Below, in pieces: positions 185-16,068 of a stretch of DNA of 64,000 nt; within the stretch, counting starts at the first letter, position 1, and each line of letters begins with the position of its first letter. The notes below the pieces were generated by a model that ran no database searches, was not told the DNA's origin, and was given only the letters and a program-made list of their open reading frames with translations. The position numbers were made by a program, and so were the translations under genes. Source of the stretch: Phycisphaerae bacterium (GTDB lineage: Bacteria; Planctomycetota; Phycisphaerae; UBA1845); contig CAXXGO010000001.1 in the NCBI GenBank assembly GCA_963666835.2, positions 2,080,001-2,144,000 of the forward strand, read 5' to 3'.

Positions 185-1204
185 ATGGCGAAACGCAAAC
201 CGAAGAAGACCGCCAAGCCGATCCGGGTCGACGTTGCCCCCCGTGATGTGCTCCGGATGTACTGTGAGCAGTTCCCGGATGCGCTCACCCGATACCAACA
301 AGGCAAGCGATCAAACGACACCGCTCTCGATTCGCTCCGGGGCTGGCTGGATATACAACAACGTGTCGGCGGGGCAGATGACCACGTAGCCGAGTTCCGG
401 CGCCGGTTTGAGCTTACCCAGGCGGGATACGTCCGCGCGGTCGAGTGGCTGACGACTATAATTACGACGATCGGGGAGCTCGGCGCGGAGCTCAACCTAT
501 CCACAGACACGAAACCGGTGTACGTGCTGTTGTATGCTTTGCCGGGCGAGACGTCGGAGCACGTGACAGCGGCAGAGGGAACGGTACGCGGCTTATTGGC
601 TGATCTCTCGGTGATAGCATCGAAGGGGAAATCCGCGGATGGTGAAGAGGGTATGACAGGCTCGGATACGGTCGAATCCAAGCAGCAGGGGGCGGTGAAC
701 ATCCCCGATAAGGTGCAGGCCAAACCGAAAGATACGAGAACGAAAGAACAACGACTCGACGATATCAAGAGCTACATAGCCGGTCAAAAAGCTATCGAGA
801 AGGTGGTGGGAATCGAGGACATCGCCGCTGGTGCGAATTGTAGTACGGGGTTCGTTTCACAGTCGGCACCGTGGCAAGAATACAAGGAGTCCAAGAAGGT
901 AAGACAGAGTAAATCTGTGTGGACAACCAATTTGCTCGATCCCAATCGTGTCAATGCAGACGGAGACACCGCCCGCAGGCAGAAGCTCGGTCACGAGGCG
1001 AATGTGAACGACACCGACATGTTGATGGACATCGAGACGATTCGGGAGAAGTACCCGACATTATCTCCGCAAGAAGTCGCCCGAAAGGTCAGCGAGCTTG
1101 GCGATGAATATGAATGCACCGCCGGACATGTCGAGGCGTTCGACAATAGCCAGCGGATGAAATTCCTAACCGCCGAAACCGCTCAGCCTGTAGCCTGCTC
1201 GTGA
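185..1204 (+). CDS. Hypothetical protein of the element, possible HTH DNA-binding protein
   Basis: 339-aa ORF with RBS GAAGGAG and HTH-like segments (IEDIAAGANCSTGFVSQ; LSPQEVARKV). Confidence 0.55.
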   Translation: MAKRKPKKTAKPIRVDVAPRDVLRMYCEQFPDALTRYQQGKRSNDTALDSLRGWLDIQQRVGGADDHVAEFRRRFELTQAGYVRAVEWLTTIITTIGELGAELNLSTDTKPVYVLLYALPGETSEHVTAAEGTVRGLLADLSVIASKGKSADGEEGMTGSDTVESKQQGAVNIPDKVQAKPKDTRTKEQRLDDIKSYIAGQKAIEKVVGIEDIAAGANCSTGFVSQSAPWQEYKESKKVRQSKSVWTTNLLDPNRVNADGDTARRQKLGHEANVNDTDMLMDIETIREKYPTLSPQEVARKVSELGDEYECTAGHVEAFDNSQRMKFLTAETAQPVACS

Positions 1205-1342
1205 AATTTCATGAACTTTCACGCACACAATCCAGCCCCCAAAACGGCCATAACGACCCCGTAAAGGCCGTTCACATCTAACAACTCGTGAACACCGGGA
1301 TAGGTGAAAGCAATGTCGCTTTCCTAAACCTGGAGATTCACG
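1200..1342. promoter_or_regulatory. Operator-like array of GTGAA/TTCAC half-sites
   Basis: Near-perfect 24-bp palindrome CGTGAAATTTCATGAACTTTCACG (1200-1223), inverted pair GTTCAC..GTGAAC (1270-1293), further half-sites at 1304 and 1337. Confidence 0.5.
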
Positions 1343-1684
1343 ATGCAGAACGACGCAACGGACACACCGCCCCGGCTACTGACCACGGGGGAGATCGCCA
1401 AGCGGCTCGGCCAACGGGTTGACCGTATCGCCCGCATTCTGAGGACGAGACCACACATTCAGCCATCGGCAATGGCTGGCAACTCTCGGCTGTACGATCA
1501 TGAGTCCTACATCCTGATCTGCCGCGAGATCGCAACCATCGACGCACGGAAGACCGAGCGGAAGAGATTCATCGACAAGCTGTGCAAGGCGGCAACTGGC
1601 CCCGACCGAGCCTCTCGGCGGTTGTATTCAGACAGTGATGTGGAATTGAAGAAGCGGATGGGGCAGGAAGGCGGTGCCTCGTGA
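1343..1684 (+). CDS. MerR/excisionase-like HTH protein
   Basis: LTTGEIAKRLGQRVDRIARIL...AGNSRLYD winged-HTH pattern; RBS GGAG. Confidence 0.7.
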   Translation: MQNDATDTPPRLLTTGEIAKRLGQRVDRIARILRTRPHIQPSAMAGNSRLYDHESYILICREIATIDARKTERKRFIDKLCKAATGPDRASRRLYSDSDVELKKRMGQEGGAS

Positions 1685-1914
1685 AAGATCCATCCACACT
1701 CACCAGAAAAGAGATGACGGCGGCGCGGAAGGCTATACGTGAGCAGTGCCAATTGCTGAACGAAGCGGTCCTTAACGCGATGCATTGGCACGCTATGCGG
1801 CCATGTGTTGTAAGAAGGTACCTGAAGTATCTGACGGCAATTGAAGAGGAGTTCGTACGGGCTAAACCCCGAAAGGGCCCGAGGCGGAAAGGCGGCGCGG
1901 TCAATGAAGGATAA
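1681..1914 (+). CDS. Small hypothetical protein
   Basis: GTGA start/stop coupling to the upstream gene; overlaps the start of the next gene. Confidence 0.5.
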   Translation: MKDPSTLTRKEMTAARKAIREQCQLLNEAVLNAMHWHAMRPCVVRRYLKYLTAIEEEFVRAKPRKGPRRKGGAVNEG

Positions 1915-2383
1915 ACCCGTCATCATGATCGACCAGCGCGAGAAACTCCCGTGGAAGTTCGATAGCCCGACCGAATCTGCGTTGTTGCAGACCGCCGACT
2001 ACTCGATTCGGGGATTAGAACACCGGATCGCGATTGAGCGGAAGAGCCTTGACGACCTGCTCGGGTGTGTGGGCAGGAACCGCGAGAGGTTCACCCGTGA
2101 GCTCGAACGCCTCCAAGGTATTCAATGCCGATGCGTGGTGGTCGAGTCTAGTCTTGAGGATATCCGAGCAGGCTCATGGCGCCCGCAGATTACGCCAGCC
2201 CAGACCGTGGGCAGTATCGCTAGCTGGATGGCCAAGTTCAATGTCTGCTTCTTTCTCGCCGGCAACCGCGACTTAGCCGCAAGGTTCGCTGAGAGGTTTT
2301 TGGTCAACGCTGCCCGGACGTTGGCTTCCGAGTACGAGGCGGCTGTCGAGTTCCTCGAGGTGGCAGGAGGGCGAGATGGGTAG
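1904..2383 (+). CDS. ERCC4/XPF-family nuclease domain protein
   Basis: IDQRE, ADY and IERKSLDDL (ERKxxxD) motifs. Start moved to ATG 1904. Confidence 0.85.
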   Translation: MKDKPVIMIDQREKLPWKFDSPTESALLQTADYSIRGLEHRIAIERKSLDDLLGCVGRNRERFTRELERLQGIQCRCVVVESSLEDIRAGSWRPQITPAQTVGSIASWMAKFNVCFFLAGNRDLAARFAERFLVNAARTLASEYEAAVEFLEVAGGRDG

Positions 2384-4838
2384 TAATCAATGGCGAGAAG
2401 TCACCAAGGCTGAACCCTGCCCGATCTGCTCTCACGGCGATTGGTGCGCATTCTCGACAGACGGTTCTGCCTGCCGATGTATGCGACTGGATGCGCCATC
2501 GGCCGGATGGAAGTTCCTTCGGACTGATTCTGACGGGGGTAGTACCTTTCGGCGTACCGACGCAACCCCGACTCCGGCACCCGCGAAGCCAGACAAGCCC
2601 CGCAAGCGGCACGAGACCTTTGAGGGCGCGGTCAAAGCACTAGCTTGGAACGTTGAACGCTGTCAGAAGGAAGCCGGAAAGCGTATCGGTGCGGAGTTCG
2701 TCGCGTACTACCCATACGAGCGTCTCGACGAATCCGACAACGCAGTCGAAGTGAACCGGGAAGTCAGGTTCCTCGATCCCTCTGGCAAGAAGGAAATGAG
2801 ATGGTGTCATCAGGGCTCTGACAATCGTTGGGTGACCAAACGCGGAGATCATCGCGGCATCTTCGGGCTCGGTAATGTGCTCGCAGCACCTTCGGACACC
2901 CCGATCCTGATCGTCGAGGGCGCCAAGGTTGCTGTCCTCGCCAAGGATCTCGACCTGCTTGCGGTCACGTCTGGAGGATGCACTTCGGCTAAGCTGGTCG
3001 ACTGGTCCCCCCTCAGTGGTCGTGACGTAGTTGTCCTGCCCGATGCCGGTGAAGACGGAGCGAAGTACGCGGATGCCATACAAAGGGCACTCGCGAAGCT
3101 GAACTCTCCACCATCGGTCAAGGTTATTCGCCTGCCCGGGTTGGAGGACAGCGAGGACCTAGAAGAGTACATCGCAAACCAGCGTACCGCAGGTCTATCC
3201 GACGATGCCATCAGAGAGAAGATCGTGACGATGATTGAAGATGCCCCCAAAGCGGAACCACCAGCACCGGAGCCGGAACCGAAGAAGAAGCGTGCCGGTC
3301 CACCCATTGATGAGCAACTACTTAAGATGGTGCTTGATCGTTATGACATCCGACGTTCGATGGATGATAAGACCTTCGCCACATTGAAAGACGGCAAATC
3401 GTGCATCGTGCAGATGGTCAACACCGATCGTCGTGGGATATGCGGGGTCATGCGCAGAATGTATACCGATCGCCACGAGTATGCCAATCTGGATCAGTCG
3501 GTATTGAACAAGGTTGTTGCCACATTGGATTCACGGGGCGACGATCTAGATCGAGAGACAATCCATCTTCGTGTTGCCGATTATGGTGAGAACACATCGT
3601 ACTATGATCCGGGCTGGCGTTCGGGGCAGGCTATACAAATCGGCCCTGACGGTTGGGATGTTGTAGAGCGTCCTCCCGTATGGTTTCGACGAGCCCAGCT
3701 AACGTATCCAATGCCTGAGCCTGTGCGCGGTGGAGATCTTGATCGCCTACGTGAGCTTATCAACGTGCAGACCGATGCAGAATGGACGATGCTATTGGGA
3801 TGGTTAGTTGCATGTACGTTCGAGGTTATTGACCACCCTATTTGCTTTCTTGGCGGTCGTGCCGCCTCTGGTAAATCAACTGTAATGCACTTGATCACGA
3901 GCGCGATCGATTACCTGGGCGACGAGGATCTTGCGCCTCCAGAAGACCCACGAAGCTGGGCTGCTCTCGCCGACAATAGCTGGGTGATGCAGGCTGACAA
4001 CATATCGCATATCGATGCCGCATGGAGCAATACGTTGTGCAGCGGGGTGACTGGAGCAAGGAAACCCGACCGAGAGTTGTATACGAATACGGGGCTAGTC
4101 GTCATCGGTATGCGACGATGCATCATCCTAACGAGCATTGATGTAGGCAAGGTGCGCAGCGACTTGGCCTCCCGCCTCATGAAGATCAATCTCAAGCGAA
4201 TCGATAAGCCTCGTAAACCGAGGGTGCTGCGCGAGGCATTCAAGAGCGCTCACGGGGAGATCTTCGGCGGATTGCTCGACTTGAGCGCAAAGGTGCGAGG
4301 ACGATTGCCAAACATAACGGATACGGGATCGTTTCGTTGTGTGGACTACGCGTACATTCTCAAGGCTATTGACCAGGAACTCGGTACAACCGGGTTTGAT
4401 GCGTATGCAGCCATGCAAGCAGATTGCACACGTGCGGTGGTTGAGGATGATGTGGTGGGTGAGATGGTGGTGAAACTCGTGAGAGAGAATGGCGGGCGCT
4501 GGAGCGGGAAGATGAGAGATCTTTTTCAGATGCTGGATGGTCGCGCCGGAACGCCGAAGACACCTGCAACGCTGGGTAAGGCGATAAACCACATGGAGAA
4601 TTCGTTGGAGGCTATGGGGATTAGGTTTAAGAGTCGGCCGACTAATGATGCAAGGGTGTGGACGTTCTATGAGTTCGCATCGGATGTGGCCTCCGGAGAC
4701 GATCCCAACGTGCGGAAGTTCGCACCTGCGCCCAGCACAGACGAAGACCCATTCCCTCTGAATCCACCACCACCATCCCCGATGGAAGCGGAGGAAGTAT
4801 ATGTAGACGAGCACGGTGAGGAGTGTGGGACCATATGA
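2376..4838 (+). CDS. Primase-helicase (Zn-binding + TOPRIM + P-loop NTPase)
   Basis: CPICSHGDWC Zn finger, TOPRIM IVEG...PDAGEDG, Walker A GRAASGKST and downstream ADN motif. Confidence 0.85.
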   Translation: MGSNQWREVTKAEPCPICSHGDWCAFSTDGSACRCMRLDAPSAGWKFLRTDSDGGSTFRRTDATPTPAPAKPDKPRKRHETFEGAVKALAWNVERCQKEAGKRIGAEFVAYYPYERLDESDNAVEVNREVRFLDPSGKKEMRWCHQGSDNRWVTKRGDHRGIFGLGNVLAAPSDTPILIVEGAKVAVLAKDLDLLAVTSGGCTSAKLVDWSPLSGRDVVVLPDAGEDGAKYADAIQRALAKLNSPPSVKVIRLPGLEDSEDLEEYIANQRTAGLSDDAIREKIVTMIEDAPKAEPPAPEPEPKKKRAGPPIDEQLLKMVLDRYDIRRSMDDKTFATLKDGKSCIVQMVNTDRRGICGVMRRMYTDRHEYANLDQSVLNKVVATLDSRGDDLDRETIHLRVADYGENTSYYDPGWRSGQAIQIGPDGWDVVERPPVWFRRAQLTYPMPEPVRGGDLDRLRELINVQTDAEWTMLLGWLVACTFEVIDHPICFLGGRAASGKSTVMHLITSAIDYLGDEDLAPPEDPRSWAALADNSWVMQADNISHIDAAWSNTLCSGVTGARKPDRELYTNTGLVVIGMRRCIILTSIDVGKVRSDLASRLMKINLKRIDKPRKPRVLREAFKSAHGEIFGGLLDLSAKVRGRLPNITDTGSFRCVDYAYILKAIDQELGTTGFDAYAAMQADCTRAVVEDDVVGEMVVKLVRENGGRWSGKMRDLFQMLDGRAGTPKTPATLGKAINHMENSLEAMGIRFKSRPTNDARVWTFYEFASDVASGDDPNVRKFAPAPSTDEDPFPLNPPPPSPMEAEEVYVDEHGEECGTI

Positions 4839-5206
4839 CAGCAACAACACGACAGACATGCATGGTACTCGCAGAGCTTCGTCAGAAGGACATCGAGCTA
4901 TTCATCGGGGATGGGGAATTGCGGTACGTTCCTCGACAGGCAATGACAACGGAACTCCACGCGAGACTACAGGCCCATCGAGATGCCATTTTAACGGCAT
5001 TGTCTGACCCGTGCGATACGGCCTTGGCGATAGTCGACGATGTACTTGAGCGTGAGGGTTTTGACGCTGCTCTCGATCTTGGCGAGCACTTCGAGGAACG
5101 CGCAGCCGTGCGGGAGTTCGAGGGCGATGTCTCGCGAGAGCGGGCCGAATGCGGGGCGTTGCTGGATACTTGCTATCGGCTGAATGGTAGGGGGGTGGCA
5201 GAATGA
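4835..5206 (+). CDS. Phage-type small protein (TubC-N-like domain + FEERAA motif)
   Basis: ATGA coupling with the primase stop; ELFIGDGELRY..ELHARLQAHRDAIL and FEERAAVREFEG segments. Confidence 0.6.
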   Translation: MTATTRQTCMVLAELRQKDIELFIGDGELRYVPRQAMTTELHARLQAHRDAILTALSDPCDTALAIVDDVLEREGFDAALDLGEHFEERAAVREFEGDVSRERAECGALLDTCYRLNGRGVAE

Positions 5207-5499
5207 GTGACGCGCCACTAACCGCGCAGCAGGTCGCCGAGTATCTTCAATGCTCCGTGCAGCACGTGCGCAAACTCTGCCAGTGTGGGGCGCTCAAGTG
5301 TTCCCGCCTGCCCTCGCCGATCTCCGGCAAGATTGGACCGAAGGCTGAGTACCGGATCAGACAATCGGCGGTTGAGGAGATGTTGGGCATTGAGCCTATC
5401 AGAAAGCCTCGACGAAAGACCCTTACTCCTGCTCAGCGACGCCGGGCGCGGTCGGAATTAGAGTTGGCAAAGTCTCTGCTGCGCGCTGGAGCTGGGTAG
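5203..5499 (+). CDS. Excisionase-like HTH protein
   Basis: LTAQQVAEYLQCSVQHVRKLC...YRIRQSAVEE; next to the integrase. Confidence 0.8.
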   Translation: MSDAPLTAQQVAEYLQCSVQHVRKLCQCGALKCSRLPSPISGKIGPKAEYRIRQSAVEEMLGIEPIRKPRRKTLTPAQRRRARSELELAKSLLRAGAG

Positions 5500-6430
5500 A
5501 CCGGACTTGGGCGTACACTTGGACCATCTTCAGGTCGACATGCCCGAGCAGTTTCGCCACCACCTCAATAGGCGTACCGGCCTCCAACCACGTTTGAGCT
5601 GCAGTATGCCTGAGCGTGTACACCCCGCGAATACCATGCCGAGAGAGCGATCGAGACAGCGATCTACGCTTCCACGGTCCTCCTCGGCAATTGTGAAAGA
5701 CAAGCTCGCCCGGTGAGTGTGGTTCGGGGATTGACTCTAGAACCTCCATCGCTTGGGGTGGCAAGTAGATCGTGCGCGGTCGTCTGGTCTTGGCTGCGGT
5801 CTTGTGCTGATCGAGTACGCAAACCCGTTTCTCCATCCGGACCTGCTCCCATGTCAAAGAGATTGCCTCACTGGGACGGCAGCCGGTCGTGAGAATGAAC
5901 GTGGCGACTCGTTTAATCGTCGGGTTCAGGGTTGACCATGCCTTGGCGATGTTCTCCGGGCTCTCGTCGCGTGGATGCAGGATCTCTTTACGATGAGGTG
6001 CAGAATCGGGTGGCTTATCAATCCAGCCCTGAGCCGCAGCCCAACGACAGACGACCCTCGCCGTAGATGTGTAACGGTTGATCGTGCTGGGCTTGAGGTC
6101 CCGCGTATCGAGGTAATCACCGTAGGCGTGAAGGACAAGCGGATCGTGGAGAATGTCGAAGGGCGCATCTGTTGCGAAGTCCTCAACCCATCGGCCAGCC
6201 GCCCGGGCTAAGTTGTGGTTGGGTTTGGCCTCCTGGCACCATCGCCGATAGAGTTCAGCAATCGAGCTAGGAGCGCCCGCACGTCGCCCCAGACCACCGA
6301 GAATCTCTCCGGCCCGCTTGTATGCGACGGCCATGTCGGTCCCGAGGTGATGATCCTTGCCGCCGACCCGTAACCTGAAGTACGGATTTCGCCCCTTCTT
6401 CCGGATGCACTGAACTGTCGGTTCTCGCAT
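5423..6430 (-). CDS. Tyrosine recombinase/integrase
   Basis: Catalytic motifs TGCRPSEA (R), K, YTLRH, LLGH and VY (Tyr); RBS GGGAGG. Confidence 0.93.
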   Translation of the reverse strand: MREPTVQCIRKKGRNPYFRLRVGGKDHHLGTDMAVAYKRAGEILGGLGRRAGAPSSIAELYRRWCQEAKPNHNLARAAGRWVEDFATDAPFDILHDPLVLHAYGDYLDTRDLKPSTINRYTSTARVVCRWAAAQGWIDKPPDSAPHRKEILHPRDESPENIAKAWSTLNPTIKRVATFILTTGCRPSEAISLTWEQVRMEKRVCVLDQHKTAAKTRRPRTIYLPPQAMEVLESIPEPHSPGELVFHNCRGGPWKRRSLSRSLSRHGIRGVYTLRHTAAQTWLEAGTPIEVVAKLLGHVDLKMVQVYAQVRSTQLQRAAETLPTLIPTAPGVAEQE

Positions 6431-6805: not shown

Positions 6806-7123
6806 ATGTCCGTACACGGCGGCCAACAACAGGATTCCGGATTCGACAAGACCACCGATCCCGCAGGTGGAGGGGCAGGGGCTCTGCCCTCGCGCCGCGC
6901 GATAGTAACCGGCGGGGTGAAGTTGGCTTTCGTTGCTCCGGTTCTGTCGACCTTCTTCGCCAGTCAGGCTTACGCCGCTAATTACAGTTGCTATCCGCTC
7001 GGGCACACGTGTGACACGGTCAGCGAGGGGAAACGGCAGCAGTGTTGCGGCGCGCTTACGTGCAAGGGACCTGATACGATTCCGGTTGATCCGGGCGATG
7101 TCGACGGTACGTGCCAGCCGTAA
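6806..7123 (+). CDS. Twin-arginine, Cys-rich (knottin-like) putative RiPP precursor
   Basis: SRRAIV Tat-like motif, FVAPVL motif, AYA|A signal peptidase site, then C62-x6-C69-x10-C80C81-x4-C86-x16-C103. First gene of an RRE-containing operon. Confidence 0.75.
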   Translation: MSVHGGQQQDSGFDKTTDPAGGGAGALPSRRAIVTGGVKLAFVAPVLSTFFASQAYAANYSCYPLGHTCDTVSEGKRQQCCGALTCKGPDTIPVDPGDVDGTCQP

Positions 7124-7205: not shown

Positions 7206-8531
7206 ATGTCCTCGGCAGCATCAGGGCGGACGGCTACGTTGTTCATAATCGCTTGTGCGCTGGGCGGGGCAGGCGTGTCCGGGACGCTGCTCAAGGCGCA
7301 CGACGGCGGTTGGCAGATCGCCAGCCGGGACGGCGTCGGTCTTATTCAGTATTGCAACGCTCAGATTATTCCCAACGCCGATTGCCCGCAGGTCATGGGC
7401 AGCCGCTGGGGGTCCTTCGATGCCCGGATCGGCTCACACCGAGTGTTGGTTCCCACCTCACTGATCGGCTTGGCGTACTTCGTTGCCGTGGCCGTCTGGT
7501 TTGGGATGGTCAGTCCCGGTGGGGTCCGGGGCGGTTGGACCTGGCCGATTACAATCCTCGCAGTGGCGGCAGGGCTCGCCGGATCGTTGTTTCTCGTGGT
7601 CATCATGGCGGTGTCGGTGAGTCGATGGTGCCCCCTTTGCGTGGTCGCACATCTGTTGAACGGGGCGATTGTCATAGCGACTTTGTGGTTGTGGCGACGC
7701 ACCAGGCGTAGTCCCGATTGCAGCGTGCCGGTTGTTCCGGGGATGATTCGTCTTCGCCGCCGGCTGGCGTGGTCTGCCGCAACAGTGGCTCTGGGGGCGG
7801 CCGTGGGATTCTGGCTCTACTTCGATGCGGTGACTGAAGCCCGTCGACAATGGCGAAAGTACACTCATTTGAAGCAAGCGGTAACCGCCCTGCAGGACGA
7901 CCCGCAACTCACGCTTCGGGCGTTCTATGCTCAAGAGGTCGTCGAAGACCTATGGGACGATCGAAACGCTGATTCGGAATGGGGGGTGAGTACGCTCCGT
8001 CCGCGGCTTACGGTGTTCACGGACTACGATTGTGGCCCCTGCGCATGCTTCGAGAGTACCCGCGAGCGGGTGATCAGCGTGGCCTTTACGGACGGCGTGG
8101 ATCTCCAGGTACGCTACTGCCCTGAAACCACCGGGACGGGGCGGGCAGACGTGTCGACTTTGGCGGCGAGCTGCGCCGCGGAAGCGGCTCGGCGCCAAGG
8201 CGGATCGGACGCGCAGCTACGCATGCATCGGTTGCTGTTCATTCACCGCCAGGCTGGTCCGCAACGAGACTACGCCGACTTGGCCCGGCAGGCCGGCCTT
8301 GACGTTGACCGATTCCTGGAAGATTGGCAAAGCGAGCCGGTGCGGGAGGCGGTTCTGAGCGATATTGGTCTGGCGAACTCTCTGAAGGTCTCCGCCCCGG
8401 CCGTGTTCCTCGAAGGTCGGCGCGTGCCGGACTTGTGCGTTGAGAGCCCGACCTTCTGGGAGGCGGTTTCGGCTGAGCTGGCCAAGGAACGGGTCGCGGC
8501 CTCGTCCGAGATCGGGGAGGAGCTGCGATGA
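7206..8531 (+). CDS. VKOR-DsbA/thioredoxin fusion (disulfide formation)
   Basis: VKOR loop Cys pair (YCNAQ..DCPQVMGSRW), TM helices and WCPLC. DsbA-like FTDYDCGPC and cis-Pro loop VSAPAVFLEG. ATG 7206 with RBS AAGGAAGG. Confidence 0.88.
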   Translation: MSSAASGRTATLFIIACALGGAGVSGTLLKAHDGGWQIASRDGVGLIQYCNAQIIPNADCPQVMGSRWGSFDARIGSHRVLVPTSLIGLAYFVAVAVWFGMVSPGGVRGGWTWPITILAVAAGLAGSLFLVVIMAVSVSRWCPLCVVAHLLNGAIVIATLWLWRRTRRSPDCSVPVVPGMIRLRRRLAWSAATVALGAAVGFWLYFDAVTEARRQWRKYTHLKQAVTALQDDPQLTLRAFYAQEVVEDLWDDRNADSEWGVSTLRPRLTVFTDYDCGPCACFESTRERVISVAFTDGVDLQVRYCPETTGTGRADVSTLAASCAAEAARRQGGSDAQLRMHRLLFIHRQAGPQRDYADLARQAGLDVDRFLEDWQSEPVREAVLSDIGLANSLKVSAPAVFLEGRRVPDLCVESPTFWEAVSAELAKERVAASSEIGEELR

Positions 8532-8860
8532 CTGACGCGGTCAACGGCGATGGTGTGCGTCTTTCGCCGGCCGTCTGCTCCGAGTCCGGCAGTCAAGCGC
8601 GCCTCGTCCGGAGAACGGATGTCACCGTCTATGAGCTGGACGGAGAGGGGCTGGTCTTCGACGCCACCCGCGGTGACACGCATCGTCTGAACGCGACGGC
8701 TATGGCGATTTGGCGCGAATGTGACGGCCGGCAGGATGCAGCGCAGATTGCCGAACGCCTTACGGATTCTTATGACGTTTCTATGGCAGCGGCTGTTGAG
8801 CATGTGGAGAGGCTTCTTCGAGAGTTTCAGGAACGGCGGCTGGTTTACACGGCGTTTTGA
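8528..8860 (+). CDS. PqqD-family RiPP recognition element (RRE)
   Basis: ELDGEGLVFD..THRLNATAMAIWRECDG..IAERL..YDV..L+E..LV PqqD pattern; ATGA-coupled to VKOR. Confidence 0.92.
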   Translation: MTDAVNGDGVRLSPAVCSESGSQARLVRRTDVTVYELDGEGLVFDATRGDTHRLNATAMAIWRECDGRQDAAQIAERLTDSYDVSMAAAVEHVERLLREFQERRLVYTAF

Positions 8861-8872
8861 CACAGGGACCGG

Positions 8873-9781
8873 ATGCTTAGCATGGCCCGGGATGACAGGC
8901 AAGACGTGATGCACTTTCAGATCGGCGAGGTAGCGATGTCGCTGCGGACGCCGCTCCGGTCGTTACGCAGTCAGTATCTTGCTCTGTATGAAGACTTCCG
9001 GGTCCCGCAGCGGGCACGCAACTCCATTCGCATCGAGGTTCGCCCCTCGCAGCGGTCCTTACGCCATCGGCGGTGCTACCGGGTCTATGTGGACGGGCGA
9101 TTGCGGTTCGAGCCGACCCGGTTCAAGGAACTGCTGCCCTACGTGGAGTGGGCGGTCAACTGGGAGTTAGCCCGGGTCATGCCGCAGTTTCTGCAACTCC
9201 ACGCCTCCTCCATGGAGATTAACGGGCAGGGCGTGATTCTGCCGGGGGCGTCGGGTAGCGGAAAGTCCACCCTGACTACCGGACTGATTGCCGACGGATG
9301 GCGATATCTCTGTGATGAATTCGCGTTGATTCATTCGGGCACCCTGGAGCTTCACCCGTTTCCCCGGGCGATTTGTGTCAAGAAGCCGGCATTTTCCGTG
9401 ATGGAGTCCCTCGGGTTTCACCTGCAGAAAGCCCGGCATTACCACAAGGGGACCAAGGGCGATGTAGTTTTTCTGAATCCGTTGAATCTGCGGCCCAATG
9501 GGATCGGACGCACCTGCCCGGTACGATATGTCGTCTTTCCGCGCTACGCCGCTGGAGCGGAACCGGCGCTGGTGCCCATCAGCCGGGCGGAGGCGGCCCT
9601 CGACATGCACCACGTCTGCTTCAACCTCTTCGGGTGCCGGACGCTCGGCGTGGAGGTTCTGGCGAAGCTGGTACGGGGGGCTTCCTGTTATCGACTTATC
9701 AGTGGAGAGATTGGCAAGACCTGTCGTTTGCTCCGCGGAATGGTCGAACAGGCGGCCCAACCGCAGGCTCTAAGCGCGTAA
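8873..9781 (+). CDS. HPr-kinase-related P-loop kinase (lasso-peptide kinase / HprK-related type)
   Basis: LHAS...ILPGASGSGKSTLT...GWRYLCDE...PFPR motifs. Confidence 0.88.
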   Translation: MLSMARDDRQDVMHFQIGEVAMSLRTPLRSLRSQYLALYEDFRVPQRARNSIRIEVRPSQRSLRHRRCYRVYVDGRLRFEPTRFKELLPYVEWAVNWELARVMPQFLQLHASSMEINGQGVILPGASGSGKSTLTTGLIADGWRYLCDEFALIHSGTLELHPFPRAICVKKPAFSVMESLGFHLQKARHYHKGTKGDVVFLNPLNLRPNGIGRTCPVRYVVFPRYAAGAEPALVPISRAEAALDMHHVCFNLFGCRTLGVEVLAKLVRGASCYRLISGEIGKTCRLLRGMVEQAAQPQALSA

Positions 9782-9816: not shown

Positions 9817-10995
9817 ATGGAGGACTTGATGGACCATAGTGGAATCCAACTTGCCCCCTGGTTGAACGCTGCCGGTCCGCCGCGTGCCGCTGTCGAGTGG
9901 ATGGAACCAGTCGAAGTGGCCTGCGAATCCGGGCTTGCCGGGTTGCTCTTGGAACACGTTTCGCGACACGGGCTCGAACCTCCGGCAGATGCCGCCGAGA
10001 CCCTGCGCCGCGCGGCTGCGTCAGTCGCGCAAAACAACATCCACCTGCACGACGAGCTGGCTGACGTGGTTCAGGCTTTCAACCGGGCGAAGGTCCCCGT
10101 GATGCTCCTCAAAGGGGCAGCCCTCAATCATACGATCTACCCCCGATATAACCTCCGTCCGATGAGCGATCTCGACTTGCTCGTCCACCCGGATTCGGCG
10201 GAAGAGGCCGTGCAGTTGCTTGCCGATCACGGTTGTCCGCGCGGATTCGATCTCGTCCGCGACGATTTCTTCCCGAAATACCACAACGAGGTCGAGTTGC
10301 TGACGGGCTCGCCCAATCCCGCCCGGATCGATCTGCACGCGCGACCGCTACGCCCACTACGAATCTCGCAGACAATGCCGGACGACGCTCTGTGGGAAGA
10401 CGCTCAACCGGTTCATATCGGAGACGGTAAGGCGTGGATCCCCCGTCCGGAGTTAAACTGCCTCCACTTGGCGGCCCACGCGGCTTATCATGGCTGTTCC
10501 CGGTTGATCTGGCTATATGATCTTCTCAGGCTTCACGAAGCGTACGGCAGTGTCATGGATTGGGGTCTGTTGGTCGATCGGGCTCGGGAATGGAAGCTGT
10601 CGTGGCCGGTCCTTTTCGCCCTGCGTCGCGCGGGCGAGCTCCTCGGCGAAGTCTGTCCGCCAGGGGTAATCGAGAAGCTGGAGGGACATCCGATCGGCTG
10701 GCGCGACCGGTTGGCTCTAGTTCACGCTCCACGGGACGCCGCCGCCCCGATCTCTCATCTCGTAGTAGATCTGCTCTGTACGCCCGGGATTCGCTTCCGG
10801 ATAGGGTACGCCTCGTCCTTTGTGCTGCCCGGAGGTAAGCATCTGGCCGGGATCTACCCCTTCCGGCACCGGGGATGGAAGGCGGTTGCGCACCTCTGGC
10901 GGTGTCTTCGAGCCGCAGGCCGGGCTGTGGCGGGGCTGGCGAGCGCGCCGGCCGCTCTGCTGCGTCGAGGCAGCTTCCGGTTGGCGTCTCCGTAA
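9817..10995 (+). CDS. Nucleotidyltransferase family protein (NTP_transf_5-like)
   Basis: LLKGAAL...RPMSDLDLLV, IDLH, HAAYH..RLIWLYDL. Start at ATG 9817 or 9829. Confidence 0.88.
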   Translation: MEDLMDHSGIQLAPWLNAAGPPRAAVEWMEPVEVACESGLAGLLLEHVSRHGLEPPADAAETLRRAAASVAQNNIHLHDELADVVQAFNRAKVPVMLLKGAALNHTIYPRYNLRPMSDLDLLVHPDSAEEAVQLLADHGCPRGFDLVRDDFFPKYHNEVELLTGSPNPARIDLHARPLRPLRISQTMPDDALWEDAQPVHIGDGKAWIPRPELNCLHLAAHAAYHGCSRLIWLYDLLRLHEAYGSVMDWGLLVDRAREWKLSWPVLFALRRAGELLGEVCPPGVIEKLEGHPIGWRDRLALVHAPRDAAAPISHLVVDLLCTPGIRFRIGYASSFVLPGGKHLAGIYPFRHRGWKAVAHLWRCLRAAGRAVAGLASAPAALLRRGSFRLASP

Positions 10996-11132: not shown

Positions 11133-12140
11133 ATGACGCGTTGGCATCAACACACGGTGGCCGTCGTGATGACCGTGAAGAACGATCCCGCGGGTTGTGC
11201 CGTGACCCTTGGTTCGCTGGTAACCCAGACACGCCGCCCGGACGAGATAATCGTAGTAGACGGCGGGTCGACCGACGATACCGTGCGTTTGGTTCGGCAG
11301 TACCAGGGCAGCCTGCCACAATTGCGGGTTATTGACGCTCCCGGGGCCAACATCGCTCGCGGGCGAAACATCGGGGTCGAGGCGGCAGAGTCAGAGATTG
11401 TGGCCACGACCGATTGCGGATGTCGGGCGGATTCGAAGTGGCTGGAGGAGTTGCTGCGACCTTTCCAGGAGGATCCCGGCACGGAATTCGTGGCGGGTTT
11501 CTATCGAATCGAAGCCCACAGCCTTCTGGAAGAGGTTGTGGGGTTGGCGACGATGCGCGGGCAGTTGGACCCGGTCGACCCGGACAAGTTCAACCCGTCG
11601 GCTCGGTCGATGGCGCTGACCAAAGCGTTGTGGACCAGGGCGGGGGGCTGGCCGGAGTGGATCTCGTTTTCCGAAGACACCCTCCTGGATCACAAGATAA
11701 GGCAGATGGACGTCGGGTGGGCTTTCGCCGGAGATGCGGTGGTACGCTGGCGTCCGCGCCGGTCGCTTCCGGCAATTGCCCGCCAGTTTCATAATTACGG
11801 CACCGGGCGGGGGCACACGCAGATTGATGCCGCGGGCTATCTTTACGACGTTCGGAACGGCCTGCTCTTTGCGGGGACGGCGGTTGCCAGCCTGTGGACG
11901 GTGTGGGCGCTGCCGCTTCTTGTCGCGATTTTTGGCTATTTCTATGTTTGGGCGTTTCACCACAAGGCGATGCGTGTGGCCCGCCGGGCCGGACGCTGGC
12001 CGGCATACCCGCTTTGCCTCTGCGTTATGTGGGTGATCATTGCGGTGAACATCACCGGGTTCCTGGCGGGTTCCTGGCAGAGGCAACGGGATCAGGGTCG
12101 ATACCGGCGTCGGCTCGAGGCATACCTGGCCGGCCCCTGA
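11133..12140 (+). CDS. Glycosyltransferase family 2
   Basis: VVDGGSTDDT, ARGRNIG, TDCG (DxD-like position), SED and C-terminal TM helices. Confidence 0.9.
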   Translation: MTRWHQHTVAVVMTVKNDPAGCAVTLGSLVTQTRRPDEIIVVDGGSTDDTVRLVRQYQGSLPQLRVIDAPGANIARGRNIGVEAAESEIVATTDCGCRADSKWLEELLRPFQEDPGTEFVAGFYRIEAHSLLEEVVGLATMRGQLDPVDPDKFNPSARSMALTKALWTRAGGWPEWISFSEDTLLDHKIRQMDVGWAFAGDAVVRWRPRRSLPAIARQFHNYGTGRGHTQIDAAGYLYDVRNGLLFAGTAVASLWTVWALPLLVAIFGYFYVWAFHHKAMRVARRAGRWPAYPLCLCVMWVIIAVNITGFLAGSWQRQRDQGRYRRRLEAYLAGP

Positions 12141-12305
12141 GACTCCGTCCCCGCTTACCAAGGGAGGATCGAGGGGCGTCGATTCGGGAGCTGCAGAGTT
12201 TTCCGGGGTTTTCAACAAGAACGCCCGTAGTGACTTAGAAAAGTGCCCGACGCCGACAATGGAGCGGCCTATCCAGTGAATCGAAACCAGCCAACCCGCT
12301 CCACG

Positions 12306-13745
12306 ATGAGGCGACGCTGGCTGTGTGTCGCCTACGCTTTCCCTCCGATCAATCGAAGCGGAACGCACCGCACCTTGGGCTTCGTGAGGCACCTGGATTC
12401 GCTTGGGTGGGACGCCACCGTGCTAACCGTGGATCCAGGGGATGAGCCGGTTGATGCTGGTCTCCTTGACCGGGTCCCCGAGTCGACCGAGGTCATTCAA
12501 TCGCTGTGGACGGACCTTATCGCCCAGGCAAAACGGATGTTGTGCCTCGGGCGTTCTCAAGAGAGAGCGAGTGATTTTCCCCGCGACGCCGCGCGTTACG
12601 ACCAAACCGTCATCAGCGGAACCGCCCGCGATGGAAAGCCGGGCGGGGTGAAGGAGTGGGTGTCCCGTTTGTTGATTACTCCGGATTCCCGGCTTGGTTG
12701 GCTCGGTCCGGCAACACGCCGGGGTATGGCCGCAATTCGCCGACGGCGCCCCGAGGTGATCTACTCGACCTCACCGTATATGACGGCTCATCTGATCGCG
12801 GCGCGACTTGCCCGCCGAACGGGCGTCCCCTGGGTTGCGGATTTTCGAGATCCGTGGTGCGACAACCCGTTCCGCAGTCTAGGCTTCACGAGTCTTCGGC
12901 GATGGGATGAATGGTTGGAGCGTCGGACCCTTCGCCGCGCCGCTCATGTAGTATGCACGACCTCGACCATGCGGGATCGATTTGCGGAGCGACTGCCGTT
13001 CGTGCGCGAAAAGTCCAGCGTCATCACCAACGGGTTCGACGCAGAGCTGTTGACCGGCCTTACGCCGACACGCGTTGCGCCGGTGGAAGATCTGGTCCTG
13101 ACCCACTGTGGACAGTTCTACGGGCCGCGTCGCCCGCAGGTGTGGTTCGATGCCCTAAGACGGGTGCTGGACCAACCTTCGGATCGACCGCGGAGAATCC
13201 ACTTGCAGTTGCTCGGACCGGATTCGTACGAGGGCCGGCCGCTGATGGAACTGGCCGCGGACGCGGGAGTCGCCGAGCATGTTCACGTGTCGGGCTCCAA
13301 GAGCCATCGGGAGGCTCTATCGCACATGGCCGGCAGTGACGTGTTGCTGCTGGCCGGATCGTCGGGCGTCGGTAGCGATCTGCAGGTGCCCAACAAACTG
13401 TTCGAGTACCTTGCCGTGCGCCGGCCGATTATCGCCGCGGTTTCCGCAAACAGCCCGGTCGTTGGGATCCTCCGCGAAGCCGGGGCGGAGGCGTCTGTCT
13501 GCGATCCGGAAGATGCACTCGGTATTGCCGAAGCGATCGAGAACCTCTCCGAATCGCATAGTCCGGACCCCGCGCAAGCATGGGATGGCGTTTCCCGGTT
13601 CGACCGCGCCAATCGAGCGCGCGAGCTGGCTGCGATCTTTCAGCACGTATCCCAGTCGAAGATCCTCGGACGGACATCGCGGATTGCCGCCGCCGACCAC
13701 AAGTGCCAAGGCGTAGACACCGCCCGCGGCTACGCCCACGGATAG
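12306..13745 (+). CDS. Glycosyltransferase family 4
   Basis: AYAFPP..SG..R, WVADFRDPW, ITNGFD and PNKLFEYL motifs. Alternative GTG start at 12243. Confidence 0.9.
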   Translation: MRRRWLCVAYAFPPINRSGTHRTLGFVRHLDSLGWDATVLTVDPGDEPVDAGLLDRVPESTEVIQSLWTDLIAQAKRMLCLGRSQERASDFPRDAARYDQTVISGTARDGKPGGVKEWVSRLLITPDSRLGWLGPATRRGMAAIRRRRPEVIYSTSPYMTAHLIAARLARRTGVPWVADFRDPWCDNPFRSLGFTSLRRWDEWLERRTLRRAAHVVCTTSTMRDRFAERLPFVREKSSVITNGFDAELLTGLTPTRVAPVEDLVLTHCGQFYGPRRPQVWFDALRRVLDQPSDRPRRIHLQLLGPDSYEGRPLMELAADAGVAEHVHVSGSKSHREALSHMAGSDVLLLAGSSGVGSDLQVPNKLFEYLAVRRPIIAAVSANSPVVGILREAGAEASVCDPEDALGIAEAIENLSESHSPDPAQAWDGVSRFDRANRARELAAIFQHVSQSKILGRTSRIAAADHKCQGVDTARGYAHG

Positions 13746-13796: not shown

Positions 13797-15131
13797 TTAT
13801 CCGCGTATCACCCAGCGAAGCATCTGGGCGAAGTTCGCCCCTTTACCCTGCATCAGAATCCCGACCCGGAAGATCCGGCCGGCGGCGAAGACGCAGACGA
13901 TTGTGGTTAGTAGGACCAGCACGATTCCCACGACCGGCTGCCACAGCGGGACCCCGGGCGGCACCGCCTGCCGGATGGTCATCAGCATGGGCGTGGCGGG
14001 CGGAATCAGCGACAGAATAACCGACAGCGGGGCGGTCGGCTCGCGTACGACGAAGATCCAGCAGAACAACGGCATGGCCACGACGATCATCACCGGCATC
14101 AGAGCGCTCTGAGATTCCTTCATGTCCGAGACCGCCGCGCCGATTGCTACGAAAACGGAGCCGAACATCAGCACCGCCAGAGCAAGGAACGTGACGAACC
14201 AGATCACCAAGTGCGAGGGGAAGTACTCCTCGAAGCCGGCGTGTCGGATTGCGAAGTACGCCCCGAACAGGTAAATGACCGCGAGCGTCAGCGATACTCC
14301 GACCATACCGATCAGCTTGCCCATCATGAGCTGGAACGGCGGGATCGATCCAAGGAGGACTTCGGCGATCCGCTGCATCTTCTCTTCGAGCACGCTGTGA
14401 ACCAGTGGGGTGGCGCCAATGTTGATGATCATGAACATCAGCATCATCATACCCATGGGTATGAATATGTTGGCCAGCTCGTTAGTCTCGGTCGCCTTGG
14501 TGATGTTCCCCTCCTTGTCGACCGACACCAGGCCGAGGTTGGCAATCGACATCCACTTCGTAGCTTTCTTGACCACTTCCTGGTCGAGCCCGGCCTTGGC
14601 GAAGCGGAGTTCCTTGATCCGATTGTTGATGGGAAAGCCTACCCAACGCTGAAAATCGTCACTGGTGGGACTGTTTGAATGGTAATCAATCGACTGACGC
14701 GAGTCACCGTCTTTCGGGGTAATTACGTCGGGCTCTATAATGACGAACGCGAATAGTTCGCCGTCGCGGACCCGATTAGACAGATTCAGCTTAACCCGCT
14801 CCGGGTCGTCCGCGGTGGGGGCGATTCGTTCTATGACGAAGCGGGGCATGACTTGCTTACGCTTTCCGTTCTTCGTTTCGTAGATCCCCTGGTCTTTGAT
14901 ATCCTGCTCGTTGCGCTCGTTGGACGCCTCGACAATCGCGTCGAACAGCTCTCCAGTGTGGTCCACGATGGCTACATGCCGGTCGGAGATGTCGCGTTTG
15001 TCCTCCAGAATGGTCTGGGCAATCAGTACGCCGCACATCAGAATGGGCATGGCGATCATGCTAATGACAAAGGCCTTCGTTCTGACAGCGGCTTGATACT
15101 CGCGGACGGCGACGACGATCATCTTACGCAT
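13797..15131 (-). CDS. ABC-2 type transporter permease (NatB/YhaP-like)
   Basis: REY..VRTKAF, VLEEKMQRIAEVLLGS, MMGKLIG; multiple TM helices. Confidence 0.9.
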   Translation of the reverse strand: MRKMIVVAVREYQAAVRTKAFVISMIAMPILMCGVLIAQTILEDKRDISDRHVAIVDHTGELFDAIVEASNERNEQDIKDQGIYETKNGKRKQVMPRFVIERIAPTADDPERVKLNLSNRVRDGELFAFVIIEPDVITPKDGDSRQSIDYHSNSPTSDDFQRWVGFPINNRIKELRFAKAGLDQEVVKKATKWMSIANLGLVSVDKEGNITKATETNELANIFIPMGMMMLMFMIINIGATPLVHSVLEEKMQRIAEVLLGSIPPFQLMMGKLIGMVGVSLTLAVIYLFGAYFAIRHAGFEEYFPSHLVIWFVTFLALAVLMFGSVFVAIGAAVSDMKESQSALMPVMIVVAMPLFCWIFVVREPTAPLSVILSLIPPATPMLMTIRQAVPPGVPLWQPVVGIVLVLLTTIVCVFAAGRIFRVGILMQGKGANFAQMLRWVIRG

Positions 15132-16068
15132 GGCTGGCCTCCTGAGCTTGGGACGCGGTGGCGGCCGTGTCTGCCTCCGGGCCGGCTATCCTGACGAAGA
15201 TGTCGTGAAGCGACGGTTTGGCAAGCTCGAAGTGAGCCACCCGCCCCCGCGCCATCAGAGCGGCGAGGGTCTGTTGCGAATCGGTGTCCGGAGCCATCCG
15301 CAGTTCCTGGAGATGGCCGAAGTCCGTTACCTTCTCAACTCCTTCGATTCCACGCGGGTCGAATCCTCCGTTCTCCACCTTCACTCTGATCGTATCCTGT
15401 CCGTATGAGTCCTGGATCGAAGCGAGCGTGCCGTCGAGCACCTTGTTGCCCTTGAAGATCATGAAGATGAAGTCGCACATCTTCTCGGCCACGGCCATGT
15501 CATGGGTCGAGAAGATCACCGTGGCGCCGCGCTGCCGCAAAGCGAGGACCTCCTCCCGCAGGACATCGGTATTCACGGGGTCAAGCCCGGTGAACGGCTC
15601 GTCCAGGATCACGAGTCTCGGATCGGCGATGACCGAGGAGATGAACTGGACCTTCTGAGCCATGCCCTTCGACAGGGTCTCTATCTTGCGGTTTGCCCAG
15701 TCGGCCAAATCCAGCCGATCGAGCCAGTGCTTGACGGCGGCGTTGAAGTCACGCCGCCCTTTAAGTTCGGCGTAGAACCGCAGGAGGTCCCACACTTTCA
15801 TCTTTTTGTAAAGGCCCCGCTCTTCCGGCAGGTAGCCGATTTCGTCGTTAGCGGCCGTCAGACTCTCCTCGCCCAACACGCGAATCCGCCCGGTTCCCGC
15901 ATCGGGCCGGTAGATCCGCATGATCATCCGCAGAGTAGTCGTTTTGCCCGATCCGTTGGGCCCGATGAATCCGTAGATTGCGCCTTCGGGTACGGAGAGC
16001 GAGAGGTTGTTTACTGCGATGTGCTCACCGAACGTCTTGGTGGCGTTTTCAATCTCGACAATGTTCAT
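15124..16068 (-). CDS. ABC transporter ATP-binding protein
   Basis: GPNGSGKTT, LSKGMAQK, ILDEP, STH and C-terminal PSLHDIF. Confidence 0.95.
   Translation of the reverse strand: MNIVEIENATKTFGEHIAVNNLSLSVPEGAIYGFIGPNGSGKTTTLRMIMRIYRPDAGTGRIRVLGEESLTAANDEIGYLPEERGLYKKMKVWDLLRFYAELKGRRDFNAAVKHWLDRLDLADWANRKIETLSKGMAQKVQFISSVIADPRLVILDEPFTGLDPVNTDVLREEVLALRQRGATVIFSTHDMAVAEKMCDFIFMIFKGNKVLDGTLASIQDSYGQDTIRVKVENGGFDPRGIEGVEKVTDFGHLQELRMAPDTDSQQTLAALMARGRVAHFELAKPSLHDIFVRIAGPEADTAATASQAQEASHA

Follow-up and report, generated by a model that had tools for sequence, protein, structure and literature searches.

The locus analyzed here lies in a 64-kb window (the whole stretch of 64,000 nucleotides of a Phycisphaerae contig) and raises the question whether one short sequence can be both the leader by which an RRE recognizes a precursor and the Tat signal by which the product is exported. 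Nucleotides 6890-6979 (+) encode SRRAIVTGGVKLAFVAPVLSTFFASQAYAA, residues 29-58 of the 105-aa ORF 6806-7123, and a preliminary description of this DNA had read the segment as a Tat signal with a lasso-type RRE-binding motif inside it. Translation confirmed the twin arginine R30-R31, F42, P45, L47, and A55-Y56-A57/A58 where that description had placed them. From the comparative evidence given below, we consider it rather likely that the leader of this RRE/kinase/nucleotidyltransferase precursor binds the RRE via F42-x-x-P45, and we predict that it then acts as a Tat signal removed by signal peptidase I.

The precursor has no match in Pfam or NCBIfam, and a search of the ESM Atlas returned unnamed clusters only. 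Judged by its conservation, it is nevertheless a real gene despite lacking a named family: a full-length search gave 20 candidates, 18 of which are homologs, from Phycisphaerae/Planctomycetota records. No homologs of 262-2000 aa were found, a length range that leaves out the 185-258 aa fusions discussed below. In all 19 sequences (the ORF and its homologs) R30, R31, G37, F42, A44, P45, S48, T49, A57, Y60, S61, and six Cys are invariant, and the 25 N-terminal residues preceding RR are not conserved. By this alignment, conservation of the leader is well above chance expectation. The consensus of the family leaders is RRxVVRxGxKLAFVAPVxSTFFAxxAYA; leader statistics refer to 173 parsed leaders (10 rows were unparsed), and the RR and hydrophobic counts for these leaders, as for the RRE-fused ones below, are partly inherent in the search profile and the parsing pattern. 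According to tblastn and the leader profile, the genome holds one precursor and one such RRE. The leader profile had no match among PDB sequences, tblastn of plasmids with a related precursor (L060) gave nothing credible, a listing of sequencing runs contained no RNA data sets, and a promoter/terminator scan gave no signal exceeding shuffles. Distant leaders of the YAAP type were observed in P0077, P0096, and P0107, one of them named from a Thermomicrobiales genome; P0077 and P0096 each contain two leader copies in a single frame.

Table 1. Features of the precursor locus and its surroundings (positions are those of the window).
Feature	Positions	Strand	Basis or remarks
Precursor gene, 105 aa	6806..7123	+	Unconserved n-region, conserved leader, six-Cys core; 18 homologs
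Conserved leader S29-A57 (twin-arginine motif, h-region, AxA)	6890..6976	+	Homolog alignment, family leaders
Twin arginine R30-R31	6893..6898	+	Invariant 19/19; 27/27 RRE-fused leaders
Predicted RRE recognition sequence K39 + F42-x-x-P45-x-L47 (-19, -16, -13, -11)	6920..6946	+	Family spacing, LppA likeness
Predicted signal peptidase I site A55-Y56-A57, cut before A58	6968..6976	+	Strict A-x-A in 149/173 leaders
Predicted mature core, 48 aa, C-x6-C-x10-CC-x4-C-x16-C	6977..7120	+	Six Cys, S61 invariant 19/19
Candidate kinase site S61 (+4)	6986-6988	+	Inferred from LppA Ser3
VKOR + DsbA-like thioredoxin fusion (CPLC, CGPC), predicted disulfide-forming enzyme	7206..8531	+	Pfam VKOR, DSBA
Discrete PqqD-type RRE	8528..8860	+	TIGR04353 43 bits, cut-off 35; PF05402
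HprK-related kinase A-like enzyme, Walker A intact	8873..9781	+	TIGR04352 189 bits, cut-off 200
NTP_transf_5 nucleotidyltransferase-fold enzyme, DxD intact	9817..10995	+	PF14907
GT2 glycosyltransferase	11133..12140	+	Kept behind cassette in close clade
GT4 glycosyltransferase	12243..13745	+	Kept behind cassette in close clade
ABC-2 permease + ATPase, convergent with operon	13797-16068	-	Permease without homolog in related loci searched
Tyrosine integrase	5423-6430	-	Pfam
HTH_17	5203-5499		Pfam
ERCC4-domain protein	1841-2383		Pfam
820-aa ORF, weak DUF6371 match	2376-4838		Pfam

The gene order of the cassette recurs in relatives (Table 1). Directly upstream of the precursor lies an integrative element (185-6430); of the related loci that were scanned, just two (L115 and L139) have an integrase nearby, and the 64-kb window contains no tRNA. 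In another locus (L151:7098-13946) a long frame (2,283 aa; weak cadherin-like match) separates the precursor/NTP transferase from the RRE.

Presence of the leader is closely tied to presence of the RRE. The leader profile matches 33 of the 401 genomes of the class, 27 of them with a precursor-type leader and six in long frames, of which the four that were read are ordinary Tat substrates. This RRE family is present in every genome whose leader is precursor-type (27 of 27). Conversely, an RRE match at E<=1e-13 is found in 28 genomes; the leader profile also matches in 26 of these, and in the remaining two a leader sits immediately upstream of the RRE. For 20 divergent leaders DNA was fetched: the RRE and kinase lie in the same stretch for 19 of them and at a distance of about 6 kb for the last, and each of the five orphan-precursor genomes tested has a close RRE elsewhere. 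The RRE is present in the fetched DNA of 26 of the first 50 loci, many of the others being short contigs. Because kin are not independent, no P value is attached to this co-occurrence. Among 13 other genomes of the phylum that have an HprK_rel_A match, the leader was seen in three (one of them atypical) and in none of the fetched DNA of the other 10, and this low count speaks against generality.

The position of the motif points in the same direction. A cut after A57 puts F42, P45, and L47 at -16, -13, and -11. The crystal structure of LppB with LppA shows Y-16, P-13, and V-11 in the RRE pockets, with D70 of LppB bonding the Tyr hydroxyl and N33 binding the Pro; Y-16A and P-13A reduce LppA binding, and V-11A does not (PMC13381572). 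By analogy with LppA, L47A may barely affect binding. The Pro at -13 is invariant in the family, and Lys or Arg occupies -19 in 97% of the 173 leaders; a basic residue there, comparable to K-18 before W-15 in PbaA, would account for the odd charge of the h-region. The preliminary description had equated FVAPVL with the published (Y/W)xxPxL motif. The spacing, the Pro, and the Leu agree with it, whereas the first residue is Phe, not Tyr or Trp; both of these are found at the aromatic position in leaders of relatives.

The residue at the aromatic position covaries with the RRE. The RRE profile aligns with LppB (9x8z_B) without gaps, so that N55 corresponds to N33 and H92 to D70 (taking an 18-residue tag offset, deduced from the residues the paper names). 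Among 23 discrete pairs with a Tyr leader, the RRE pocket residue is Asp in 18 and His in five, whereas among 22 discrete pairs with a Phe leader it is His in 21, Cys in one, and Asp in none. Good support in the RRE tree is limited to 16 of its 52 inner branches, so this pattern may stem from one or few events. In two loci (L120:6137-6951 and L147:5996-6620) Lys replaces the aromatic residue and the RREs form a long branch; the RRE of L147 has lost both pocket residues.

Natural gene fusions provide a further link. The leader-only profile gave 94 matches at E<=0.001 among 1.84 billion representatives, and 23 of them are RRE-linker-leader-core proteins in which the RRE is N-terminal to the leader. 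Such fusions were read in DNA at seven loci (L021, L047-L051, L158); their presence in seven loci and 23 clusters rules them out as assembly artefacts. There is no conserved internal start between the RRE and RR, and in L048 no start codon at all in this interval. The leader and core are also fused C-terminally to the kinase in L127, L130, L157, and P0102, where the linkers contain possible start codons; in L127:7498-8751, L130:3886-5079, and L157:5075-6328 an HprK-like kinase is in frame with its own leader and a Cys-rich core. Overall, RR sits 91-355 residues downstream of the frame start in fusions. RR is kept in all 27 RRE-fused proteins, but the aromatic residue is replaced by L/I/V in 14 of them, compared with a non-aromatic residue in five of 148 free leaders (six rows were corrected by eye and four skipped in this count). 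Relaxation of the aromatic position once the leader is tethered is the behavior expected of an affinity determinant. The RRE-fused forms look like one group and hence are not independent of each other. A single-sequence AlphaFold2 model of the fusion L048 has a mean pLDDT of 50, too low to be informative. In recognition of the lasso/LPP type the leader lies as a beta-strand on beta3 of the RRE. In an alignment-based AlphaFold2 model of a natural fusion the RRE and the Cys domain are confident, the leader region has a pLDDT of 53-64, and at this low confidence a strand is placed at residues 115-119, just past the Pro. In another type of fusion, VKOR-DsbA is in frame with the RRE via an acidic linker (L008:4060-5940, L012:10218-12125, L014:2750-4627); this would make the RRE periplasmic, unless the RRE has a start of its own at a Met some 20 residues ahead of it.

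The motif by itself is less informative. The pattern [FYW]xxPx[LIVFA] arises in 8% of shuffles of residues 32-57, and thus its presence in a single sequence is weak evidence. It is absent from 43 loose and seven canonical twin-arginine candidates elsewhere in the genome. The canonical Tat signals of the ordinary long planctomycete proteins L057, L097, and L100 carry FAAPVV or FAAPYV; a scan of four such proteins identified three, L097, L099, and L100, as Gfo/Idh/MocA oxidoreductases. The contigs of L057, L097, and L100 have no PqqD match, and the PqqD-like matches of those genomes are on other contigs. Since ordinary Tat signals with no PqqD nearby carry it, an RRE cannot be deduced from the motif alone, and together with the chance rate this led us to reject it as proof on its own. 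An AAP or FAAP sequence is often seen in the h-region of planctomycete Tat substrates of the Gfo/Idh/MocA type (L057, L097, L099, L100, L102). It is possible that the leader motif came from Tat signals of this type. The claim that the RRE binds the segment draws its support from comparison, namely the fusions, the co-occurrence, the LppA-like spacing, and the matching pocket residue, and on these grounds binding via F42-x-x-P45 is very likely.

The second part of the question is whether the leader is a Tat signal. The sequence S-R-R-A-I-V of the ORF matches the general Tat pattern Z-R-R-x-hydrophobic-hydrophobic at the n/h boundary (PMC13673990), and the leader passes a TatFind-like rule written for this analysis. 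The h-region has 14 uncharged residues, L40-S53, and leads into an AxA c-region; a strict A-x-A stands at -3/-1, 10-12 residues past the Pro, in 149 of 173 leaders. Other properties are less typical: Phe at RR+2 is found in only 18 of 173 leaders, the h-region contains Lys, PF10518 is matched by one of 37 leaders (E 0.018), and none of 56 relatives matches the NCBIfam Tat-signal models at E<=0.05, these being short profiles and not a definition. Relatives have the canonical motifs SRRKFLK (L060), SRRAFLR, SRRNFLR, and TRRRFL, and RR is also present in leaders located via their neighbors and not by the profile (L137, L145, L146, L147). The closest matches of the leader profile outside the family are ordinary Tat signals, which suggests that the leader derives from true Tat signals.

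The genome encodes TatA, TatC, and signal peptidase I, and TatC is found in each of five other carriers examined. No B2 peptidase (PF13471) scored above the cut-off in the genome, no archaeal-type signal peptidase (TIGR02228, a profile that may not detect LppS) was found in five carrier genomes, no S24 matches lie inside the clusters, and no peptidase or exporter recurs among the 61 of 123 candidate neighbor ORFs scanned. VKOR-DsbA adjoins 17 of 31 Cys-rich cores compared with one of 20 Cys-poor cores, and this one shares its locus with a Cys-rich precursor; that VKOR-DsbA tracks Cys-rich cores points to oxidation after export. Tat tolerates small unfolded substrates. The proposal that a Tat signal is cut here by the housekeeping signal peptidase I thus agrees with the conserved RR and AxA, SRRxFL in relatives, the lack of a B2 or archaeal-type peptidase, and VKOR-DsbA, and Tat export with cleavage after A57 is probable.

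The core peptides behind this leader are very different. The predicted core of the ORF has a Cys spacing that we take to resemble that of a cystine knot, whereas in 16 related loci the core consists of only 5-15 residues and is Cys-free and Ser-rich, for example ASPSS. Ser is present at +1..+6 in 168 of 172 cores, versus 101 of 179 for the eight residues preceding the RR motif. LppK phosphorylates Ser3 of its core (PMC13381572), and PsmN is required for placing hexoses on the Ser-phosphate of pseudomycoidin (PMC6993621). Ser enrichment and these two precedents make S61 a candidate modification site. At two loci radical SAM enzymes accompany the leader: in L060:6869-8798 a SRRKFLK/YTAPVI precursor is followed by a radical SAM-like protein that carries a C-terminal RRE, and two B12-binding radical SAM genes lie between the precursor and the RRE in L106:3032-6697.

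Three other explanations of the segment have to be weighed. It may be an RRE leader only, with RR and the AxA-like end serving enzyme docking or another protease, and with a product that leaves via Sec or the ABC-2 system or stays inside the cell. Such a role would fit the failure of Tat profiles to match the leaders, the Lys within the h-region, the internal position of RR in fusions, and the ABC-2 pair that follows the operon on the opposite strand, and LPP provides a precedent with its RRE-dependent dedicated peptidase and ABC exporter. However, exact SRRxFLK/R motifs followed by a hydrophobic stretch and AxA occur in relatives, the ABC-2 permease has no homolog in the related loci searched, TIGR02228 finds no LppS-type peptidase in five genomes (with the reservation about this profile made above), and VKOR-DsbA follows Cys-rich cores, so that we regard this explanation as unlikely. 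The opposite possibility, an ordinary Tat signal that inherited FVAP from planctomycete Tat signals while the target of the RRE lies elsewhere in the precursor or in another protein, is quite improbable. The invariant Pro at -13 and the aromatic residue that tracks the RRE pocket and relaxes in fusions argue against it, as does conservation residue by residue, which is unusual for signal peptides. Moreover, with cores of 5-15 residues in 16 loci and an unconserved n-region, no conserved surface other than the leader is on offer. What makes this possibility worth considering is FAAPxV in unrelated Tat signals, the chance rate of the motif in the ORF, and the bufferins, whose signal is not needed for modification.

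Alternatively, the leader could bind the RRE and be inserted by Tat but remain uncleaved, as a membrane anchor displaying a Ser-phosphate-linked glycan; the peptide would then be a primer of a surface glycan. It is hard to imagine free products as small as cores of 5-8 residues (ASPSS, for instance), the close clade keeps GT2 and GT4, uncleaved Tat signals of classes III and V are known (PMC13673990), and LPP clusters are found in capsule loci (PMC13381572). On the other hand, the strict A-x-A at a fixed position in most leaders speaks against an anchor, and no homologs of the GT2/GT4 of this operon were found in the fetched DNA of the 19 loci that contain an RRE but have Cys-poor cores only; we consider an anchor very unlikely. 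The reading preferred here remains an RRE-bound leader that is subsequently exported by Tat and cleaved.

The preliminary description took lasso peptides as the model for the RRE. In a fold search the RRE of a fused relative resembles the lasso B1 protein 6jx3_B (Z 10.8, rmsd 2.1 over 85), but the better comparison, with an RRE, HprK kinase, NTP transferase, and signal-peptidase homolog, is LPP. The set of paeninodin/pseudomycoidin B1, PsmK, and PsmN shares with our operon an RRE, an HprK kinase, and an uncharacterised nucleotidyltransferase, and the pseudomycoidin set yields a Ser-phosphate capped by one or two hexoses (PMC6993621). Unlike the lasso set, the operon has no macrolactam synthetase gene, there is neither Thr-2 nor a ring-forming Asp/Glu pattern, and the predicted Ser site is N-terminal. 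With no cyclase in the operon and no B2 above the cut-off in the genome, assignment to lasso peptides was rejected.

The closest known system is that of the linear polyphosphorylated peptides (LPP, 2026) of Bacillota, with LppA, LppB, LppK, LppN, LppS, and LppD (PMC13381572). Common to both are a discrete RRE together with an HprK-like kinase and an NTP transferase, and the lack of a lasso cyclase; the leader motif at -16/-13/-11 and a Ser just past the cleavage site; an RRE Asn equivalent to N33; a setting rich in glycosyltransferases; and a leader peptidase of the type I signal peptidase fold, which here is predicted (PMC13381572). In contrast, LPP leaders as described have no twin arginine or h-region and end in FET, whereas the leader here ends in AxA, and LPP clusters encode the RRE-dependent peptidase LppS and an MsbA-like exporter (PMC13381572). 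We found neither: there is no LppS-type archaeal signal peptidase in the operon or among 61 neighbors, and instead of an MsbA-like exporter the cluster has just the unconserved convergent ABC-2 pair. A disulfide-type core with a VKOR-DsbA gene, Phe as the first motif residue with His in the pocket, and fusions of RRE and kinase to the precursor also set the present family apart. The LPP leader consensus YxxPxVLxHQxIxFETxxS is not matched by the family consensus, and with three defining features lacking (own peptidase, MsbA-like exporter, leader consensus) membership in LPP was rejected.

Other known systems share single features. The HPr-rel-A names (TIGR04352/TIGR04353) apply to the enzyme and the chaperone only: the RRE scores above the TIGR04353 cut-off and the kinase 189 versus 200 bits, no NCBIfam model matches the precursor, and the names had no mention in the literature searched. 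REMP chaperones of the Tat pathway serve cofactor insertion into redox enzymes and, to our knowledge, are not RRE folds. Like the RRE, they are dedicated, genetically linked chaperones that use the signal peptide as a maturation platform (PMC13673990). Class V Tat substrates such as FecR have an internal signal past a folded cytoplasmic domain, as in our fusions, but these signals are described as uncleaved, whereas the leaders here keep the AxA site (PMC13673990). In bufferins, the general export pathway and signal peptidase likewise replace dedicated ones and the core is a Cys-rich small protein; they differ in using Sec instead of Tat and MNIO enzymes, and their signal is dispensable for modification (PMC11626156), so the export signal of a RiPP need not be its recognition site. 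The available part of a study that mapped 13 RRE motifs does not mention Tat (PMC12710340). An RRE-bound Tat signal had no description in the literature searched, which covered few subscription papers; term searches of supplementary files found no such family, and the 8,285-pair RRE-peptide table of PMC12710340, which lies outside this coverage, could hold the family unnamed.

The following sequence of events can be proposed. The cytoplasmic RRE would bind K-x-x-F-x-x-P-x-L in the manner of lasso and LPP complexes, presenting the core to the kinase. By analogy with LppK and PsmK, the kinase would phosphorylate a Ser just past the cleavage site, probably S61, and the NTP_transf_5 enzyme, perhaps together with GT2 and GT4, would add a sugar to the phosphate, as PsmN suggests. 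The RRE would then let the leader go, TatBC would bind RR, and the modified, still reduced peptide would cross the inner membrane. Signal peptidase I would cut after A57, and VKOR-DsbA would make three disulfides in the periplasm. The least supported step is that RRE-bound precursor is kept from Tat until release, the RRE site being within the h-region. TatC contacts the h-region of the signal (PMC13186574), and this overlap is the one ground for export gating; a real delay of export by bound RRE is conceivable, although we lean slightly against it.

Still more tentative, and on balance doubtful, is the full scheme of a RiPP class with a Tat signal as its leader. Here the RRE would mask the h-region, gate export until the Ser-phospho-sugar is built in the cytoplasm, and hand the precursor over to TatBC. 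A fused RRE or kinase would be the precursor's own cytoplasmic n-region in front of a cleavable internal Tat signal, a built-in, single-use form of proofreading. The leader would have come from a planctomycete FAAPxV Tat signal, and the precursor would be the missing HPr-rel-A substrate.

In summary, the family makes several problems accessible to experiment: the function of nucleotidyltransferases of the PsmN/LppN type, for which cores down to five residues are at hand, the order of export and modification, and whether a cleavable internal Tat signal can work when a folded domain precedes it. The pairing of Tyr with Asp and of Phe with His lends itself to a simple swap experiment, and a leader able both to recruit enzymes and to export cores of widely differing kinds would be of use in engineering. 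If the proposed role of the leader is true, a substrate would be supplied for a widespread orphan RRE-kinase-nucleotidyltransferase cassette, and a Tat signal would be able to double as an RRE leader, one short sequence both recruiting the enzymes and exporting the product.
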